A stretch of DNA of 64,000 bases from Eubacteriales bacterium (GTDB lineage Bacteria > Bacillota > Clostridia > Oscillospirales > SIG627). Shown here one piece after another: positions 307 through 53,963 of this stretch. How positions within the stretch are numbered: position 1 is the stretch's first letter; each line of letters starts with the position of its first letter. The stretch lies in assembly GCA_045594565.1 (NCBI GenBank), contig JAZNYT010000002.1, forward strand, positions 1,824-65,823, read 5' to 3'. Under the pieces are notes generated by a model. The model was not told the origin of the DNA. It saw nothing but the letters and a program-made list of their open reading frames with translations, and ran no database searches. A program made the translations under genes and the position numbers.

Positions 307-1389
307 ATGAAAAACAAAGTAGGCTTTATCGGCTATGGTTCGATTGCGAGAGGTACCCACAAAGCGTCTTACAGATTAGCTGAGGACGTGGAGATTGTTG
401 CGGTTTGCGACGTGAATCCGAATGCTTTAAAAAAGGCAAAGGAAGATTTCGGCTTGTCGGATGATTGCCTTTTTACAGACTATAAGGCGTTGATAGACAG
501 TGGCAAGTGTAATATGGTTGATATTTGCACCCCTAACCGTTTTCATTGTGAGCAGGCGAAATATGCGCTTAATGCAGGTCTTGCCGTCAGTATGGAAAAG
601 CCTGCCGGTATAAACAGTAAAGAGGTAGAGGAAGTACGTGCGCTGGCAGAGAAAAAAGGATTGCCCGTATTTGTCTCGTTTACCTGGCGCCATATGCCCA
701 CAACAAGATTCCTTAAGGATACAATCGACAGCGGAGCTGTTGGTAAAGTGTATCATTGTTATATCAAGTGTATAAAAGAAAGCGGCTTGTGGGAAGGAAG
801 AAGGCTTGAGTGGCGCTTCCAAAAGGAAATGGCAGGCTCGGGAGTGCTTTGCGACCTTGGCTCTCATATGATTGACTTTTTGAACTGGATGAACGAGGAT
901 ATAGTGGGACTGTCTGCCAATATGGGTATTTTTGTCAAGGAAAGACAAAAGCTTGACAGCGATGAGTGGGCACCCGTTACAACCGACGACTATGCGAACA
1001 TTATTGCAGACCTTAAGAGCGGTGCTACTGCAAATATCGACCTTTCCCGTTGTGCTAAGACAGAGGATCAGCTTACCGAATTTGCTATTTACGGTGAAAA
1101 GGGATATATTTGCTTCAGCAGCCGTGTAGGAAAAGGTCTTGAAATATGCTATGGCGACAAGGAAACTATTGCCAAGGGTAGAGTGAAGGTGGACACACCC
1201 GAGAAGTACGGTGATGCAAGGGCGATATACCAGTCACAGTCCTTTGTAAATTACGTCAACGGCAAAAAGGACGCCTTTACAACCACTATTGACGATGGCT
1301 TGAAGGCTCAGCTCGTTATAGATGCGGCAATAAAATCTCACAAAGAAAAGCGCTATGTAACAATTGATGAGATTCGTAAAGATTTGTAA
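307..1389 (+). CDS. Gfo/Idh/MocA family NAD(P)-dependent oxidoreductase
   Basis: N-terminal Rossmann signature KVGFIGYGSIA, EKP motif (MEKPAG), and the size and architecture typical of the family. AAGGAG RBS. Confidence 0.85.
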   Translation: MKNKVGFIGYGSIARGTHKASYRLAEDVEIVAVCDVNPNALKKAKEDFGLSDDCLFTDYKALIDSGKCNMVDICTPNRFHCEQAKYALNAGLAVSMEKPAGINSKEVEEVRALAEKKGLPVFVSFTWRHMPTTRFLKDTIDSGAVGKVYHCYIKCIKESGLWEGRRLEWRFQKEMAGSGVLCDLGSHMIDFLNWMNEDIVGLSANMGIFVKERQKLDSDEWAPVTTDDYANIIADLKSGATANIDLSRCAKTEDQLTEFAIYGEKGYICFSSRVGKGLEICYGDKETIAKGRVKVDTPEKYGDARAIYQSQSFVNYVNGKKDAFTTTIDDGLKAQLVIDAAIKSHKEKRYVTIDEIRKDL

Positions 1390-1422
1390 TATAGGTCTTT
1401 TACAGAAAGGTGTTTAGCATTT

Positions 1423-2256
1423 ATGAGAACAGATTACGGTAAATTTTTAGCAATTTCAAACATTGATAATACAGATGCAGAGTTTATAAAATTGAAAGAG
1501 CTCGGGTTTTCTTATTGTCAGCTTATCTATAAGCCTGTAGAGTATACCGAAAAAGCGGCGAAGATAATATTTGAGGCATCAAAAAAGCATAACGTGCCTA
1601 TCGTGTCTATGTTTGCCGGCTTCAGAGACGGAAATTACGCCTTATCAAGGGCTGATTCCTTCAGAGTGTCGGGAATTAACAGTAAAGAATTCGGAAAAGA
1701 CCGAATTGCTTACGTTAAAAAAGCTGCCGCGTTTGCAAAAAGCATAGGAATTGACGACGTTTTGATTCACGCAGGCTATATTGCAAACAATCCACTTTCG
1801 GAAGAATATATGTATATGAGAGAGTGTCTTTCGGATTTTGCAGGCTTCTGCAAGGAAATCGGTGTAAACGTTCTTTTGGAAACAGGCTGTGAAAGTCCTA
1901 TTACTATGCTCAGAATGATTGAAGACGTGGGAACAGGCAATGTTTATGCAAATCTTGATACGGCAAATCCTATTTTGTACGGCTTTGGTAATCCCGTTGA
2001 CGCTGTATATACGCTCAATAGCTATATTAAAGGACTTCACATAAAAGACGGATTTCCTCCTGTAGACCCCGAGAAGTTAGGAGTACAAACACCTGTCGGA
2101 GAAGGCTTTGTAGACTTCAAACGCGTATTTGCCGAGCTTGAAAAGATAGGCTATGACGGCCCTATTATAATCGAACGTGAAATTTCTGGTGAAAAACAGC
2201 AAGAGGATCTGAAAAACTCTATCAAGTATCTGAATGAAGAGATTTTCAAAAAATAA
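1423..2256 (+). CDS. sugar phosphate isomerase/epimerase (xylose isomerase-like TIM barrel)
   Basis: Family-typical segments VLIHAGY, NVLLETG, ANLDTAN and GLHIKDG, ending in IIEREI. Confidence 0.8.
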   Translation: MRTDYGKFLAISNIDNTDAEFIKLKELGFSYCQLIYKPVEYTEKAAKIIFEASKKHNVPIVSMFAGFRDGNYALSRADSFRVSGINSKEFGKDRIAYVKKAAAFAKSIGIDDVLIHAGYIANNPLSEEYMYMRECLSDFAGFCKEIGVNVLLETGCESPITMLRMIEDVGTGNVYANLDTANPILYGFGNPVDAVYTLNSYIKGLHIKDGFPPVDPEKLGVQTPVGEGFVDFKRVFAELEKIGYDGPIIIEREISGEKQQEDLKNSIKYLNEEIFKK

Positions 2257-3414: not shown

Positions 3415-5020
3415 ATCTTTTTATTTTGTTTCTCAATCTGAGGAGGGTGCGTCCTGCAGGCAGGTCAAGAAGCTCCTCGTCACTGAACGTTTTCGACGTA
3501 AGGATGAGAGTACCGTATACTATAATTGCAACAGGCAGGGATGCTGCCATTGATATTATCATATTGCTTGTCGTTGTCAACATAACGTAGTAAAATGCAT
3601 AGGTTACAACACCCATAAAAGCCGAAACAACCAAGGGAAGCACAAATATGCTTTTTATCTTTGGCAGATACCCTATTTGCTTTAAACTGGTGTAGTTCAG
3701 AAAGGCGGTTACGAGAGGGAAGGTAACGTCGGCAATAAGCCTTGCGTATATTCCGAGTGAAGTAAACCTTATAAGCGCGTATATGAGAACGGTATGGAAT
3801 ACAAAGGATATAAATGCATTGATTACAGGCGCCCTCATTTTTCCGTTACCTTGCAAAACCGATGTGGTGATAATGGATAGTGAGTAGAATACACAACCAA
3901 CAGAGCCGTATTTGAGAAGCGCTATCGCTACCTCGCGGTAGGTTATGAGACTTGGAAAAAGTACTGTCATTATAGGTCTTGCCAGCACTGCAAGTCCCAC
4001 GGCAGAGGGAATGGATACTGCCATTGTAAGCTTGATTACGCCATCGATTTTTTTGTTCTTTTCTTCGTTCTTTCTTTCAATAAAAAGTCTTACCACTGCA
4101 GGCAGTGTAGATGCCGCAAGTGCCGTCGAAATAGCTATCGGCAGATTCACAAGACCCGTATACTGTGTGTTGAAAACACCTTGCAAAGAGGAAATCGCCT
4201 TGTCCGTAAATCCTTTTGACTCCATTAGATTGCCAAATATCAGGTCGTCAACCGTAAAGCTTATCTGAAAAACCGTCTGACTCAGAATAATGGGAATCAT
4301 CGTAAGGACTATTCCTCTGTAGGTGACACTCTTTCTTTCTGTGTCGGAGGTGTCGTTTTCAATTTCACTCTTTAAAGCTCTCATTCGTGATGCAAAGAAA
4401 AGAGAGAGCATTATCAGTGCACCAAAGGCTCCTGCCAGAGTACCCATAGTAGCACCCGCCGCGCCCATTGCCGACGAGCCCATGCTCTTCATAAAAAGCC
4501 AGGTGGCAAAGATGCTTACTCCCGCGTTTATTATCTGCTCAACAATTTGCGAAAGGGCAGTGGGCACCATATTTGAATGTCCCTGAAAGTATCCTCTGAA
4601 TACACCGAGAAGCGCAACTATGAAGGTAGTAGGCGCAAGCACCCTCAAGGGATACATAAGTCCCGTTCTGCCGTATAACGCTTCGAGAAATTCTGCCCCG
4701 AAGAAAAGCACCGAGAAAGCGGTTGTACCCGCAATGAGTGCGAAAACTAAAGCTCTTTTAAAAAGCACGAAAGCGTTTTTCGGGCTCTTTGATGCAAGCC
4801 TTTCCGACATAAGCTTCGATAGGGCAAGAGGGAGAGAGTAGGAGGAAAGAGTGAGGGCTACGTTGTAAATGCCGAATGCGACCGAGTAAATGCCGTTTCC
4901 TTCCTCGCCCAGCATATTTGCCATAGGGATTCTATAAATAAAGCCAATTATTTTAGTTATTATACCTGCAAGGGCAAGAATTGCGCCCTGCACGATGAGA
5001 GAGTTATTTTTCTTTTCCAT
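3413..5020 (-). CDS. MOP-superfamily polysaccharide biosynthesis/flippase protein (SpoVB/MurJ-like)
   Basis: Polytopic membrane protein. The N-terminus (SLIVQGAILALAGIITKIIGFIYRIPMANMLGEEGNGIYSVAFGIYN) is typical of SpoVB/MurJ-like flippases. I prefer the ATG at 5020 (GAGGTG RBS) over the ORF-track start at 5077. Confidence 0.8.
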   Translation of the reverse strand: MEKKNNSLIVQGAILALAGIITKIIGFIYRIPMANMLGEEGNGIYSVAFGIYNVALTLSSYSLPLALSKLMSERLASKSPKNAFVLFKRALVFALIAGTTAFSVLFFGAEFLEALYGRTGLMYPLRVLAPTTFIVALLGVFRGYFQGHSNMVPTALSQIVEQIINAGVSIFATWLFMKSMGSSAMGAAGATMGTLAGAFGALIMLSLFFASRMRALKSEIENDTSDTERKSVTYRGIVLTMIPIILSQTVFQISFTVDDLIFGNLMESKGFTDKAISSLQGVFNTQYTGLVNLPIAISTALAASTLPAVVRLFIERKNEEKNKKIDGVIKLTMAVSIPSAVGLAVLARPIMTVLFPSLITYREVAIALLKYGSVGCVFYSLSIITTSVLQGNGKMRAPVINAFISFVFHTVLIYALIRFTSLGIYARLIADVTFPLVTAFLNYTSLKQIGYLPKIKSIFVLPLVVSAFMGVVTYAFYYVMLTTTSNMIISMAASLPVAIIVYGTLILTSKTFSDEELLDLPAGRTLLRLRNKIKR

Positions 5021-39821: not shown

Positions 39822-40562
39822 ATGAACAAACTTGAAAAAATGAAAAGTGAAAAAACAAACGAAGTGGAGAAGGTGGAAAATCTTGTCTCCGAGGAAGCTG
39901 AGCAGATGAAGGAGGAAAAGAGGTTCTTTTCACTCTTTACTTTCTGGAAGAAATTAAGAAAAGAAGAAAGGGAAGATGATGCAATAGTAGAATTTGCGGA
40001 AGGTGAAGAAAAACGCGGCTTCTTGAAGCATTTCAACGCCCGTACCGCAGTACTTACAGCCTCTCTTCTTATTATCGCCGTTGCGGGATATCTTAATATT
40101 CATTTTGCAACAGTACCCGCAGAGCTTGAAAATATCGACGAAAACGGCATATCTATGGATGCTCTCAGCCCCGAAAATACCGGCGAAGTAAACGCTCCCA
40201 CCGAGACCGAGGACTATTTCGCTCTTTCTGTAATTAACCGCGAAAGAGTGAGAGATGAAGCCTTCGAAATGCTTCAGGAGCTCACCGTGTCCGATGCAGT
40301 AGATGCGGTTGCTAAAGCGGATGCATTTAGCGAAATGACAAGAATGGCAAACGAGATTACAAGTGAAGCAAATATAGAAAGCCTCGTTAAAGCAAAGGGC
40401 TTCAATAACTGTGTTGCCGTTGTTAGCGGCGAGGACGTAAACGTGGTGGTAGAGAGCAGTGGACTTACTATAAATCAGGTAGCACAAATTAAGGAGATAG
40501 TGTATCTTGAATGCGGAGTACACCCCGACAATATTAAAATTATTGAAAAAGCAGGCGTGTAA
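39822..40562 (+). CDS. spoIIIAH: stage III sporulation protein AH
   Basis: TM anchor and a C-terminal YscJ/FliF-like domain (GFNNCVAVVSGEDVNVVVESSGLT). ATG 39822 follows GCGGAGGT. Confidence 0.8.
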   Translation: MNKLEKMKSEKTNEVEKVENLVSEEAEQMKEEKRFFSLFTFWKKLRKEEREDDAIVEFAEGEEKRGFLKHFNARTAVLTASLLIIAVAGYLNIHFATVPAELENIDENGISMDALSPENTGEVNAPTETEDYFALSVINRERVRDEAFEMLQELTVSDAVDAVAKADAFSEMTRMANEITSEANIESLVKAKGFNNCVAVVSGEDVNVVVESSGLTINQVAQIKEIVYLECGVHPDNIKIIEKAGV

Positions 40563-40565
40563 GCC

Positions 40566-40594
40566 TTGACAAAACACCAAAAAACAGTTAAAAT
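40566..40594 (+). promoter_or_regulatory. sigma-A type promoter of the tRNA gene
   Basis: Perfect TTGACA (40566-40571), 17-nt spacer, TAAAAT (40589-40594), 20 nt upstream of the tRNA. Confidence 0.65.
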
Positions 40595-40614
40595 ATTAAG
40601 CGTTGACAACGCTT

Positions 40615-40689
40615 GCCTGTATAGTTAAATGGATATAACAAGCCCCTCCTAAGGGCTAGTTGTGGGTTCGATTCCCGCTGCGGGTACCA
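40615..40689 (+). tRNA. tRNA-Arg (anticodon CCU), CCA encoded
   Basis: Hand-folded cloverleaf of 75 nt. Acceptor GCCTGTA/TGCGGGT; D arm GTTA-AATGGATA-TAAC; anticodon arm AGCCC-CTCCTAA-GGGCT; 4-nt variable loop; T arm GTGGG-TTCGATT-CCCGC; discriminator A; CCA. Confidence 0.75.
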
Positions 40690-40695
40690 TGAAAA

Positions 40696-40724
40696 AAGCA
40701 CTTGCAAAAGCAAGTGCTTTTTTC
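40696..40724. terminator. bidirectional rho-independent terminator after the tRNA
   Basis: Stem AAGCACTTGC/GCAAGTGCTT, loop AAAA, with an A-run before and a T-run after. Confidence 0.8.
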
Positions 40725-40726
40725 AA

Positions 40727-40900
40727 CTAAATCCGCCGATGGCGGAATAGATCCACCTTCGGTGGATGAAATCGCTTCGCGATGAAATCCGACTTCGTCG
40801 GGATAGTAGAGGCGGATTTAATTTCATCTGAGGCGGCACGCCGAAGATTTCATCCGAGTTTGCGAGGATTTCACCGTGCGTAGCACGATTTCATTAAATA
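40727..40900. repeat. array of short GC-rich palindromes separated by GATGAAATC (left half) or its complement GATTTCATC/GATTTCACC/GATTTCATT (right half)
   Basis: Palindromes at 40732-46, 40751-67, 40771-83, 40788-802, 40832-42 and 40875-87. Motif copies at 40765, 40781 | 40820, 40846, 40867, 40887. The right-half spacing is 26, 21 and 20 nt. Confidence 0.8.
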
Positions 40901-40934
40901 TTTGAGTTGCAATTTTGTCCTACGGGTACCAAAA

Positions 40935-40970
40935 AATCCTGAATGCGAAAGTGTTCGGGATTTTTACTTT
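40935..40970 (+). terminator. terminator-like hairpin with T-run
   Basis: Stem AATCCTGAA/TTCGGGATT (one G-U pair), 10-nt loop, TTTTT. Its 5' arm can instead pair with 41002-41020. Confidence 0.5.
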
Positions 40971-41102
40971 TTACCTCTTCACTCTTCGCTTTTCACTAAA
41001 ATTCGCATTAAGGATTTTTTGAAGGTAATAGGTAAGATGTAATAGTGAAGAAGTAGGGGAAACAAACTCGTTGCGCAATTAAATTCTTTTCTTCATTTTT
41101 TA

Positions 41103-41131
41103 TTGACTTTTTAGCCCGGTTGAGTTAAAAT
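41103..41131 (+). promoter_or_regulatory. sigma-A type promoter of the tandem TIM-barrel genes
   Basis: TTGACT (41103-41108), 17-nt spacer, TAAAAT (41126-41131). Confidence 0.55.
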
Positions 41132-41162
41132 TAACTGACCATAGAAGTTTGGAGGATATAGT

Positions 41163-42119
41163 ATGAAAAAGTCTTTTTTTCATGGTACTTATTATCGTGA
41201 ATACCGCGAAGAATTAAAAGAAAATAAAACCGATTTAACCTATTTGTTCAGAAGCGTTGATTATGCAAAGCGCGACGGCTTTCAGGGTATTGAGGTTCTC
41301 CCTATTTTTGAGTTTATGAAAGGCGACGGAACAGAATTTGCAGACGATTATCTTGACGTAGCAAAGCGTTTTCGTGAAAAGATGGACAAGGAAGGAATAA
41401 AGGCTTCTTGCTTTTCGTTTGGTGTAAGTGTTTTGAATGATCCCGCTTATGCCAGACGTGTAATGAAGAAATCTGCCGATGTTGCCGCAATTGTCGGTTC
41501 TCCCTACCTTCACCACACCTTCCAATGCTCATTGAGTACTGCAGGCATTAGGCCTGAGGAAAGCTTTTATCAGGGCGCCGAAAAAACTTTTGTGGAATTC
41601 GGACGTGAAATTGCAGAATATGCAGGTGAAAAAGGACTCGAATGTATTTATGAGGACCAGGGCTACTACGTTAATACGGTTGAAAGACTCGGCTCGCTTA
41701 TTGCAGCCATCGATATGCCCAACACAGGTGTTTGTCTTGACGTAGGAAACTCATTCTTCTATGACGTTTTGCCCGAAAGCTTTGCAGGAGCCTTTGCATC
41801 TATTATAAAGCACGTACATATAAAGGACTACATTAAAAATGACAGCGCGATTAAACCCGGTAATGGTTGGGACAGAACGATCTCGGGAAGCTGGCTCAGA
41901 AACTGCGTACCGGGTACCGGTATCGTTAACTTTGAGAAGATATTCTCCATTCTTCTTGAAGCAGGCTATGACGGATTTTTCTCTCTCGAAAACCAGAATG
42001 CTCTTGATAATATAAGCAATGTCGCCGCAATCAAGGAAATCGGCGTCGCTATGAACAATATTGAAAGAATTTACAACAAGGTATTAAAAACAGTCGGTAA
42101 TTCGAGAATGGGAGTTTGA
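41163..42119 (+). CDS. sugar phosphate isomerase/epimerase (xylose isomerase-like TIM barrel), paralog 1
   Basis: SPYLHHT, ECIYEDQG, VCLDVGNSFFYD and HVHIKDY. It shares long identical blocks with the next gene. Confidence 0.8.
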   Translation: MKKSFFHGTYYREYREELKENKTDLTYLFRSVDYAKRDGFQGIEVLPIFEFMKGDGTEFADDYLDVAKRFREKMDKEGIKASCFSFGVSVLNDPAYARRVMKKSADVAAIVGSPYLHHTFQCSLSTAGIRPEESFYQGAEKTFVEFGREIAEYAGEKGLECIYEDQGYYVNTVERLGSLIAAIDMPNTGVCLDVGNSFFYDVLPESFAGAFASIIKHVHIKDYIKNDSAIKPGNGWDRTISGSWLRNCVPGTGIVNFEKIFSILLEAGYDGFFSLENQNALDNISNVAAIKEIGVAMNNIERIYNKVLKTVGNSRMGV

Positions 42120-52970: not shown

Positions 52971-53963
52971 TTAGTCCTCCTTGATGTCGGAATTCGACAA
53001 CGGATTTAAGTTTATTGCGTTTTTCATTTGCGCATCGCTTACGTGTGTATATATCTGGGTGGTGTTAAGCTGTTCGTGACCGAGAATGTCTTTAAGTACA
53101 CGGATATCCACCTTACCTGTACCGTACATAAGAGTAGCGGCTGTGTGCCTCAGCTTATGAGTAGAAAGTCCACGACCCCCAAGTCCTGCAAGGGTGAGAT
53201 ATTTTTTCACTATCCATTGCACGGTCTTATTGCTTATTCTCCTGTTATTACGGCTGATAAATAACGCGTTGGAATCCTTACAGCTGATACCTCGGCGTAT
53301 TTTCATATACTTTTCAATAGCATCAACACACATGTCGTTTATGTATACGGTTCTCTGCTTGTTACCCTTACCTGTAACAATGAGCTTCTTTTCTTTCATA
53401 TCCACGTGATGAAAGTCAATTCCCACAAGCTCGGAAAGTCGCATACCGCAGTTGAGGAAAAGCACCATCATAGCAAAATCTCTTGCCTTGTTTTCGTTTG
53501 TGGTGTCAGATAGGATTGCATCGAGGAAACGCTTGGATTCTTCAAGGGTAAGATATTTCGGAAGTGCCTGCTTGACAGTGGGAGAGGTAATATCGGATGC
53601 AGGATTATCTTTTATAAGCTTTTCTTTTTTTAGAAAAGCGTAAAAGTTTCTTATTGCAACAAGCTTTCTTGCACGGGATGCCGCCTGGTTTTTCTTATCA
53701 AGGGCAACGTGAAGCATATAATCGTATATATCCTCACTTTGAATACCGAGAACAAATTCCTCGGGTATGGAATCAAGGTCAACCTCTACGTTTCCAAGCC
53801 TTTGCTTCTTCGGGTAAATGTATTTGAAAAAATTACAGATATCGAGGCAGTATTCGTTAACGGTCAAGTCTGAACGGTTTTCGATTATCTTCTTTTGCAT
53901 AACAAATTTTTTGAGAAACGCGGGAGCCTCAGTGTAATTCAAATTGATCACCTCTGAAAACAT
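52971..53963 (-). CDS. tyrosine site-specific recombinase, XerC/XerD-like
   Basis: Catalytic region ARDFAMMVLFLNCGMRLSEL, HKLRHTAAT, LGHEQLNTTQIYTHV, with a SAM-like N-terminal domain. Confidence 0.85.
   Translation of the reverse strand: MFSEVINLNYTEAPAFLKKFVMQKKIIENRSDLTVNEYCLDICNFFKYIYPKKQRLGNVEVDLDSIPEEFVLGIQSEDIYDYMLHVALDKKNQAASRARKLVAIRNFYAFLKKEKLIKDNPASDITSPTVKQALPKYLTLEESKRFLDAILSDTTNENKARDFAMMVLFLNCGMRLSELVGIDFHHVDMKEKKLIVTGKGNKQRTVYINDMCVDAIEKYMKIRRGISCKDSNALFISRNNRRISNKTVQWIVKKYLTLAGLGGRGLSTHKLRHTAATLMYGTGKVDIRVLKDILGHEQLNTTQIYTHVSDAQMKNAINLNPLSNSDIKED

Follow-up and report, generated by a model that had tools for sequence, protein, structure and literature searches.

In the window analysed here, the whole 64,000-nucleotide (64-kb) stretch of contig JAZNYT010000002.1 from a Eubacteriales bacterium, a tRNA-Arg(CCU) gene and a gene of the sugar-phosphate isomerase/AP_endonuc_2 family are separated by a region carrying a bidirectional terminator and seven short GC-rich palindromes. 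This palindrome array is a further copy of a known dispersed repeat of gut Clostridia, one half of which is already listed in Rfam as Gut-1. The complete repeat, called the Gut-1/4HB cassette below, consists of a terminator and two opposed arms of palindromes, followed in some copies by a gene for a four-helix-bundle (4HB) protein. The window very probably carries a solo, slightly decayed copy of this cassette, inserted behind tRNA-Arg. Coordinates are collected in Table 1.

An earlier note, made from the letters alone, had described small palindromes with 3-nt centres directly after the tRNA-Arg terminator. The sequence reads as described, and a seventh, degenerate palindrome (H6) was added to the six first listed. 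The palindromes are joined by a conserved 9-mer linker, GATGAAATC, exact at 40765 and 40781 in the left half; its reverse complement is found in the right half, exact at 40846 and with one mismatch each at 40820, 40867 and 40887. This linker and its reversal had been recognized before, and the layout of two opposed repeat sets with variable palindromic cores was confirmed both in the window and in the family. The left arm contains two further, degenerate linkers. All three exact copies of GATGAAATC in the window lie within 90 bp, and 6 of its 33 matches with at most one mismatch lie within 130 bp. The periodicity of 20-21 nt, or two helical turns, that had been read from the linkers did not hold: successive linkers of the right half are 26, 21 and 20 nt apart, and those of the family about 16-26 nt, so the units are not helix-phased. 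The element also exceeds the limits of 40727-40900 first given to it, reaching 40724-40909, and spans 40678-40965 when terminator and flanking repeats are included. Decay of the window copy is indicated by the bulge in H4, by mismatches in H6 and H7 and by a lower model score.

Several other identities were rejected. A coding sequence was ruled out, the longest ORFs across the array region being 38 and 33 aa; the earlier statement that no convincing ORF is present was upheld, but not the length of about 34 aa given for the longest peptide. A CRISPR array was dismissed, as it had been before, since the units are too short and cas genes are lacking. For a type III toxin-antitoxin RNA array, the units are non-identical and a ToxN-like gene is missing. 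For binding by global regulators, through half-sites of the cre, CodY or Rex-like kind, nothing but a resemblance speaks, and the linker is not the same from one lineage to the next.

Table 1. Features of the tRNA-Arg locus and its palindrome array (window coordinates).
Feature	Position	Strand	Details
tRNA-Arg(CCU)	40615..40689	+	ARAGORN; Rfam tRNA 59.8 bits
tRNA-Arg last 12 nt CTGCGGGTACCA	40678-40689		repeated downstream, repeat family D3
T1, bidirectional intrinsic terminator	40690..40725		A6 + GCACTTGC/GCAAGTGC + T6; inverted repeat I2, 16 nt, 100% complementary
Left arm	40724..40810	+	outer end CAACTAAAT; Gut-1 42.9 bits over 40724-40793; covariation in alignment
H1 TCCGCC-GAT-GGCGGA	40732-40746		left arm
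H2 ATCCACC-TTC-GGTGGAT	40751-40767		left arm
H3 ATCGC-TTC-GCGAT	40771-40783		left arm
H4 ATCCGAC-TTC-GTCGG(G)AT	40787-40804		left arm; single bulge
Centre segment GGCGGATTT	40811..40819		reverse complement of AAATCCGCC at 40729-40737 (left-arm start); inverted repeat I6
Right arm	40820..40909	-	mirror of left arm; Gut-1 33.6 bits, minus strand, 40842-40909
H5 GGCG-GCA-CGCC inside ATCT..AGAT	40826-40848		right arm
H6 ATCC-GAGTTTGCGA-GGAT	40852-40869		right arm; degenerate
H7 CGTGC-GTA-GCACG	40873-40889		right arm
Right-arm outer end ATTTGAGTTG	40900-40909		reverse complement of CAACTCAAAT
Displaced tRNA 3' end CTACGGGTACCA	40920..40931	+	11/12 identical to 40678-40689; repeat family D3
T2, second terminator	40931..40965	+	directly after displaced tRNA end; terminator scan, inverted repeat I10

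The identity of the array was obtained from a permissive, local Rfam search, in which the left half (E = 4.9e-7) and the right half (E = 1.1e-4) both matched Gut-1, RF01706. The earlier note had not recognized a known RNA family, and this had to be revised, although both arms of the window score under the Gut-1 gathering score of 50 bits. Left arms of relatives reach 51-79.5 bits, and relatives with the linker subtype of the window are among those that pass (L133, 62.8 bits; L254, 51.1 bits; fetched loci carry L numbers throughout). Because such alignable relatives pass the threshold, the window element is a diverged, decayed Gut-1 member by homology. It also shows at least three variable hairpins split by (G/A)UGAAAU, with stem covariation, by which Gut-1 is defined. 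Gut-1 was reported by Weinberg et al. in 2010 as a likely non-coding RNA, found in human-gut metagenomes only and without a function (PMC2864571); no literature on Gut-1 later than 2010 was found. In the flanks of their seed alignment a second, inverted arm can be seen (GUGAUAUU three times, then AUAUCAC three to four times), as can a tRNA and terminator directly upstream, and neither the inverted arm nor the tRNA/terminator junction is described in the text of that paper (PMC2864571).

Relatives were collected using a pattern of the terminator junction and three linkers, giving about 112 copies from viral contigs and gut Clostridia genomes. A further 56 copies come from metagenomes. A first scan of viral contigs with three bare linkers had returned mostly chance matches; addition of the terminator junction made the pattern clean and left 15 real elements. 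In species-representative genomes at least 120 matches to the pattern were obtained, nearly all of them real. Among the matches listed, all hosts were metagenome-assembled genomes (MAGs) of gut Clostridia (Acutalibacteraceae, Oscillospiraceae, Ruminococcaceae and Christensenellaceae), with several copies per genome. A blastn search of GenBank phages with the window element and the L147 element gave no match. The array thus belongs to a dispersed family, as the earlier note had considered possible. A common dispersed element resembling repetitive extragenic palindromes (REPs), the outcome by which the note would have regarded its own reading as refuted, is largely what was found. Unlike REPs, members of the family are bound to the ends of tRNAs and to a single protein gene.

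Members of the family share a layout of tRNA 3' end, own bidirectional terminator, left arm and right arm, to which an outward promoter and a 4HB gene are added in about a quarter. Ninety-three of the 112 copies lie directly behind ...CCA and an A-run terminator, after many different tRNAs, and the arms of the window likewise come straight after a tRNA 3' end and a bidirectional terminator belonging to the element. This terminator moves together with the arms, since the T1 stem (GCACTTGC/GCAAGTGC) recurs behind other tRNAs (L139, L147, L153 and others). The left arm begins TTTTCAA(C/T)(G/T)AAAT and the right arm closes with the mirror image of this sequence. Each arm is built of 3-5 units, in which a short conserved linker is joined to a variable perfect palindrome; the right arm is inverted, and contains exactly four ATTTCA motifs in 85 of the 112 elements.

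Several linker subtypes were distinguished: GTGAAAT in most copies, GATGAAATC in the window, ATGATGT in L001 and GTGATAT in the seed sequences of Weinberg et al. (PMC2864571). The linker is matched between the two arms, yet different between lineages; hybrids, in which the two arms of one element carry different subtypes, also exist, L257 and L269 being examples of elements with unlike arms. Viral scans with ATGATGT and GTGATAT triplets returned chance matches only and no two-armed element, so the other linker variants rest on L001-L003 and the Weinberg seeds. L001 and L003 contain the orthologous tRNA-Arg site of a relative, of which the isomerase is 66% identical; a two-armed element lies there at 3644-3850 (L001) and 97-300 (L003), with ATGATGT five times followed by (A/G)CATCAT four times. 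The number of units varies between samples, because L001 has one left unit more than L003.

An identical right arm is combined with entirely different left arms in L147 and L153, and cassettes occur in tandem in L178, L170, L163, L149 and L176. At 3940-3975 of L178, CGTGC-AATCAGTTGCAAAGCAACTTGC-GCACG in the first copy stands against CGTGC-AAA-GCACG in the second. Hairpin loops with a further inserted palindrome were seen both in L178 and in L276 (at about 700-760), which suggests that arrays grow through insertion of new palindromes into loops.

At the window locus, the two copies of the tRNA 3' end, CTGCGGGTACCA and CTACGGGTACCA, lie 242 bp apart, and the chance of an 11/12 match within 300 bp was estimated by us at about 7e-4. 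Because this repeat and a second terminator follow the arms, the terminator-plus-arms piece is an insertion: a cassette with its own tRNA-end copy was inserted in the end of tRNA-Arg, and the original end was pushed downstream together with T2, presumably the original terminator of the tRNA gene. In L158 the same tRNA-Arg 3' fragment (20 nt) and terminator precede the orthologous isomerase gene, with other inserted DNA ahead, and in L001-L003 another element of the same design occupies the orthologous tRNA-Arg site. A duplicated tRNA end in front of terminator and arms was found in eight loci (L138, L169, L181, L213, L251, L256, L265 and L276). About 150-280 nt upstream of the element in these loci, a complete tRNA with a long terminator of its own is followed by 100-190 nt, then by the duplicated tRNA 3' end and the cassette. 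The 100-190-nt piece often opens with an inverted, diverged copy of the tRNA T-arm or 3' end.

Such an arrangement resembles that of tRNA-targeting integrative elements, and the arms might be integrase and/or excisionase arm-type sites of an integrative element or prophage attachment region, of which the 242-bp piece would be a minimal, att-only element or deletion remnant mobilized in trans. Besides the tRNA-end repeat with its displaced terminator and the eight loci just described, the tandem cassettes and the use of the orthologous site as a hot spot in relatives speak for this explanation, and in L061 a tyrosine integrase gene adjoins tRNA fragment, terminator and arms. We nevertheless consider it improbable. 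The other loci among the about 112 elements yielded no homologue of the L061 integrase, and no recombinase family was recurrent in the clustering of neighbouring genes; it is the 4HB gene to which the arms are tightly linked. In every copy both arrays are found on the 3' side of core and terminator, unlike classical arm sites, which are placed on either side of the core, and host housekeeping genes lie beyond the cassette. A tRNA-end repeat downstream of the element is rare (4 loci vs 2 in the control), and the variable spacing and variable palindromes are left unexplained. The protein-binding or recombination-type DNA site considered in the earlier note is a reasonable reading. No replication, partition or integrase gene is associated; replication-initiator and partition genes are absent from the genes adjoining the array, which are those of the spoIIIA operon, the tRNA and the sugar-phosphate isomerase.

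The viral contig L061 (1-1800) is the only case in which a cassette adjoins a recombinase gene. Its tyrosine integrase gene (647-1777, minus strand) abuts the tRNA 3' fragment, terminator and two-armed element; a small Xre-type helix-turn-helix gene follows the element and an Xre repressor lies further in. Possibly a prophage has integrated here on the upstream side of a cassette that was already present. A tblastn search with the integrase against the loci of the about 112 elements and against the window returned L061 itself and a weak, unrelated stretch of the window only. That stretch (53013-53471, minus strand; E = 6e-4, 24% identity over 157 aa) lies 12 kb away from the array, is tyrosine-recombinase-like and probably belongs to an unrelated gene for a phage integrase or an Xer-type recombinase. 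A prophage attP was also rejected as identity of the element, an integrase being present in L061 only and the prophage of L139 belonging to a different tRNA.

Whether the arms act as RNA or as DNA was judged from stems, loops and spacing. In 32 close relatives that can be aligned across the whole element, 86.4% of the hairpin cells are paired vs about 37% with the partner slid, and 26 of 45 stem pairs were changed on both sides. For the left-arm start and the centre segment, 98.6% of the cells are paired, with 15 cells changed on both sides. The palindrome arms thus covary, a point that the earlier note had singled out, and the hairpins are certainly selected. Among 914 pairs of the left-arm variable stems, 891 (97.5%) are Watson-Crick, 3 G-T, 12 A-C and 8 other; the right-arm stems contain 1646 Watson-Crick pairs, 7 G-T, 9 A-C and 161 mismatches of other kinds. 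Stem sequences themselves are diverse: the 211 left-arm units comprise 124 distinct palindromes, the 284 right-arm units 204.

A C-G pair closes nearly all of the loops. On the ATTTCA strand, GNA triloops account for 143 of the 211 left-arm and 82 of the 284 right-arm loops, further loops being GNNA tetraloops including GTTA, GTCA and GATA. Loops of the types d(cGNAg) and d(cGNNAg) are classic examples of extra stability in DNA hairpins, and GNYA loops are not typical stable RNA loops. The asymmetry is mirrored: the stable loops form on the bottom strand of the left arm but on the top strand of the right arm, in each case opposite to the strand modelled by Rfam. Unit lengths of 13-25 nt across the family fit folded-out hairpins by which linkers are juxtaposed and do not fit phased duplex sites.

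These data bear on the classification by Rfam, according to which the arms encode structured small RNAs. Two forms can be envisaged: two convergent Gut-1 RNAs, one per strand, or a transcript of the ATTTCA strand. Such a transcript would run leftward and stop at T1 and/or form the 5' leader of the mRNA for the 4HB protein, which in turn might bind or cleave it. The Rfam matches, the strong hairpin covariation and folding z-scores of -3.0 and -4.4 agree with an RNA; T1 is bidirectional and could end a leftward transcript, several 4HB genes begin too close to the right arm for a promoter to fit in between, GNRA-type loops are RNA motifs as well, and the motif was rated a likely RNA by Weinberg et al. 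(PMC2864571). Against this stands that a scan with the sigma-70-type consensus found no promoter for either arm on either strand in the window, so that the minus-strand RNA of about 190 nt suggested in the earlier note has no support from the promoter proposed for it. The left arm in Rfam sense begins at the T-run (U-run in RNA) of the terminator; almost no G-U is found among about 2700 variable stem pairs; the many GNYA tetraloops and cGNAg triloops are typical of DNA hairpins and lie opposite to the Rfam strand. The mirror symmetry would need two transcripts, of which the start sites are not visible, and the majority of copies are solo, with no gene to regulate. All in all, small RNAs are rather unlikely and the classification of Gut-1 as such is doubtful; a DNA site gives the best fit to the data among the competing readings.

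A candidate for a protein reading such a site was provided by clustering of all neighbouring ORFs. The only recurrent neighbour family is a protein of about 118 aa, encoded on the same strand right behind the right arm and identified as PF05635, '23S rRNA-intervening sequence protein', also TIGR02436, 'four helix bundle protein'. This 4HB gene or its remnant follows 31 of the 112 elements. A strong sigma-70-type promoter with its -35 box abutting the last ATTTCA was detected in 23 of 107 copies (21%) vs 1.2% of random positions. As the genes past the 4HB gene are ordinary host genes (e.g., dCMP deaminase, RimI, TsaD, Rex), the cassette measures only about 0.6 kb. Following a reverse search of metagenomes with the 4HB protein alignment, both arms were found immediately upstream of the 4HB gene in 49 (88%) of the 56 loci with enough upstream sequence. 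The 4HB profile matches PDB entries 2RLD (E = 1e-41) and 2GSC, with five chains per entry each; 2GSC is an assembly of five four-helix bundles according to its title as cited in PMC3936711. The family is absent from PADLOC and PHROGs.

About 70% of the family are solo copies without promoter or gene. Their stems are as intact as those of gene-linked copies (92.7% vs 95.0% Watson-Crick). The window element, lacking both the outward promoter and the PF05635 gene after its right arm, is such a solo copy, and no 4HB-like ORF was found anywhere in the 64-kb window.

With a promoter at this position, the arms could be an array of plain duplex operators, bound by a transcription factor that regulates this promoter, the palindromes being incidental spacers. 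The -35 box next to the last ATTTCA, the position of the arms upstream of most 4HB genes and a linker that is lineage-specific but matched in both arms would suit an operator. Such an array would hardly explain why the spacers have remained almost perfect palindromes and why their loops are constrained, and with linkers 16-26 bp apart the sites do not lie on one face of the helix. Copies without promoter or gene are equally intact, and the left arm, which abuts the terminator, is 100-200 bp away from the promoter. A plain operator is regarded as improbable.

We propose instead that the arms act as DNA. When the DNA is supercoiled or transiently single-stranded, each palindrome would be extruded as a hairpin and capped by cGNAg or cGNNAg on the ATTTCA strand, which is the bottom one in the left arm and the top one in the right. 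Extruded palindromes would set the conserved linkers side by side at any stem length, resulting in a compact multi-site platform. The reader of the platform may be a protein with sequence specificity that varies together with the linker; the sole candidate is the 4HB protein of the cassette itself, possibly with one pentamer per arm. The platform might regulate the outward promoter next to it and/or label the cassette for spread and exchange between tRNA flanks. That the arms are DNA hairpin platforms with the 4HB protein as putative reader falls somewhat short of even odds when taken by itself. For the whole explanation, a solo tRNA-flank cassette copy with DNA hairpin arms and a 4HB reader, we estimate a probability of about 0.4.

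A number of observations weigh against this proposal. Terminator stems, which surely act as RNA, have only 1.8% G-U, so that short selected RNA stems could be poor in G-U as well; these stems do keep an RNA-sense bias (22 G-T vs 5 A-C). GNRA and GNA loops stabilize RNA too. In one subtype (L304, L324, L332 and L336) only about 20 nt separate the last ATTTCA from the ribosome binding site of the 4HB gene (ATTTCATTAAAAnACGAGAGGTT..ATG), about 25-30 nt before the start codon. Because no promoter fits between, the transcript must begin within the arms or ahead of them; in these four loci the right arm is either transcribed or promoter-bearing, and an RNA role is conceivable. The link between linker type and 4HB clade could be simple co-inheritance. 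Regarding insertion, no match to an empty site (tRNA end joined to T2) was obtained in a metagenome scan, in which the occupied form was likewise unmatched, showing that the collection scanned does not include the genome of the window, and only a minority of the collected copies have flanking tRNA-end repeats. Finally, no recombinase linked to the cassette in the collected loci accounts for its movement.

As neither promoter nor 4HB gene is present within 64 kb, the window copy is a relic, unless it serves as a site in trans. Its local role is probably limited to ending transcription of the tRNA via T1.

In the wider surroundings, the spoIIIAA-AH operon lies upstream of tRNA-Arg, from which the host can be recognized as a spore-forming Firmicute. 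The nearest proteins to those of the window come from gut metagenomes and 'Ruminococcaceae bacterium' MAGs; an exact-protein look-up of the neighbouring isomerase, of which the gene starts at 41163, returned no record. The 5' half of T2, CAAAAAATCCTGAATGCGAA (40930-40949), has a second inverted partner at 41002-41021 (20 nt, 95%), and more nested inverted repeats are located at 40964-41055, just upstream of the isomerase promoter (41103-41131). A weak match to the ylbH leader (17.8 bits) falls in the region 40930-41100. The inverted repeats at 40930-41100 could reflect an alternative leader or attenuator pairing or another decayed palindromic element. In L156 (1-590, compared with window 40560-41160) the isomerase is 98% identical; the DNA is unrelated from about 110 bp upstream of the start codon, and tRNA-Arg and the array are absent from that upstream DNA. 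As the upstream DNA of L156 is unrelated, the promoter-proximal region has been rearranged between close strains.

While the window copy joins a known family, the interest lies in the architecture of this family. On a more speculative and, in our estimate, unlikely reading, Gut-1 would not be a small RNA but one arm of a two-armed DNA hairpin platform and, together with the pentameric PF05635 protein, would form an undescribed selfish cassette of tRNA 3' flanks, parallel to the relatives of the PF05635 protein found inside 23S rRNA intervening sequences. If true, the large '23S rRNA intervening sequence protein' family would gain its first nucleic-acid target outside diversity-generating retroelements (DGRs). 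Independently of this reading, a 16-year-old orphan Rfam motif has gained a concrete anatomy and a partner protein through the present analysis. Two questions are raised: whether PF05635, a widespread family of unknown function, binds a defined DNA or RNA hairpin array, and how small cassettes settle behind tRNA genes without a recombinase.

Among known systems, the Gut-1 motif itself has in common with the cassette three variable-sequence hairpins split by (G/A)UGAAAU and an occurrence in gut Firmicutes. The Rfam model covers one arm only and calls it a small RNA of unknown function, and its description lacks the outward promoter and 4HB gene of the cassette family. REPs with their mosaic (BIME) and paired (REPIN) forms are likewise short dispersed extragenic palindromes with a conserved single-stranded head, clustered in direct and inverted orientation, for which a role as DNA hairpins is assumed. 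Within one genome the stems of REPs keep their sequence, whereas those of the cassette vary from unit to unit; the cassette is found strictly behind tRNA genes and terminators with a linked 4HB gene, and no gene for a REP-associated tyrosine transposase (RAYT) was recurrent among the genes neighbouring cassettes. Correia/NEMIS elements of Neisseria and BOX elements of pneumococcus resemble the cassette in a length of 100-200 bp, terminal inverted symmetry, modular units, possible outward promoters and a mostly non-autonomous nature. They differ in sequence and host range, and the cassette, which lacks a TA target duplication, consists of independent mini-hairpin arrays tied to a tRNA end and a protein gene.

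With the arm-type arrays of attP of tyrosine integrases and with att-flanked remnants of the CIME type, the cassette has in common short opposed direct repeats near a tRNA-derived core, flanking copies of the tRNA end and tandem accretion; in the cassette both sets lie on one side of the core, the spacers are palindromic and no integrase is linked. Integron attC sites also keep their structure while the sequence varies, are folded from single-stranded DNA and bound tandem gene cassettes. The Gut-1/4HB cassette misses the R''/R' core consensus (RYYYAAC / GTTRRRY) and an integron integrase, and has multiple mini-hairpins instead of one long imperfect stem.

Avd, the accessory protein of DGRs, is a small helical-bundle protein which we take to be a relative of PF05635; the cassette shares the Avd-like 4HB gene at family level only. 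Reverse transcriptase, template and variable repeat are absent from the recurrent neighbours of the cassette. The target of DGRs is a DNA hairpin or cruciform of which the stem sequence is free and the 5'-GRNA loop is essential and strand-specific (PMC3240598), features like those proposed here for the arms, which differ in having 7-9 hairpins in two opposed arrays instead of one, mostly triloops, and conserved linkers.

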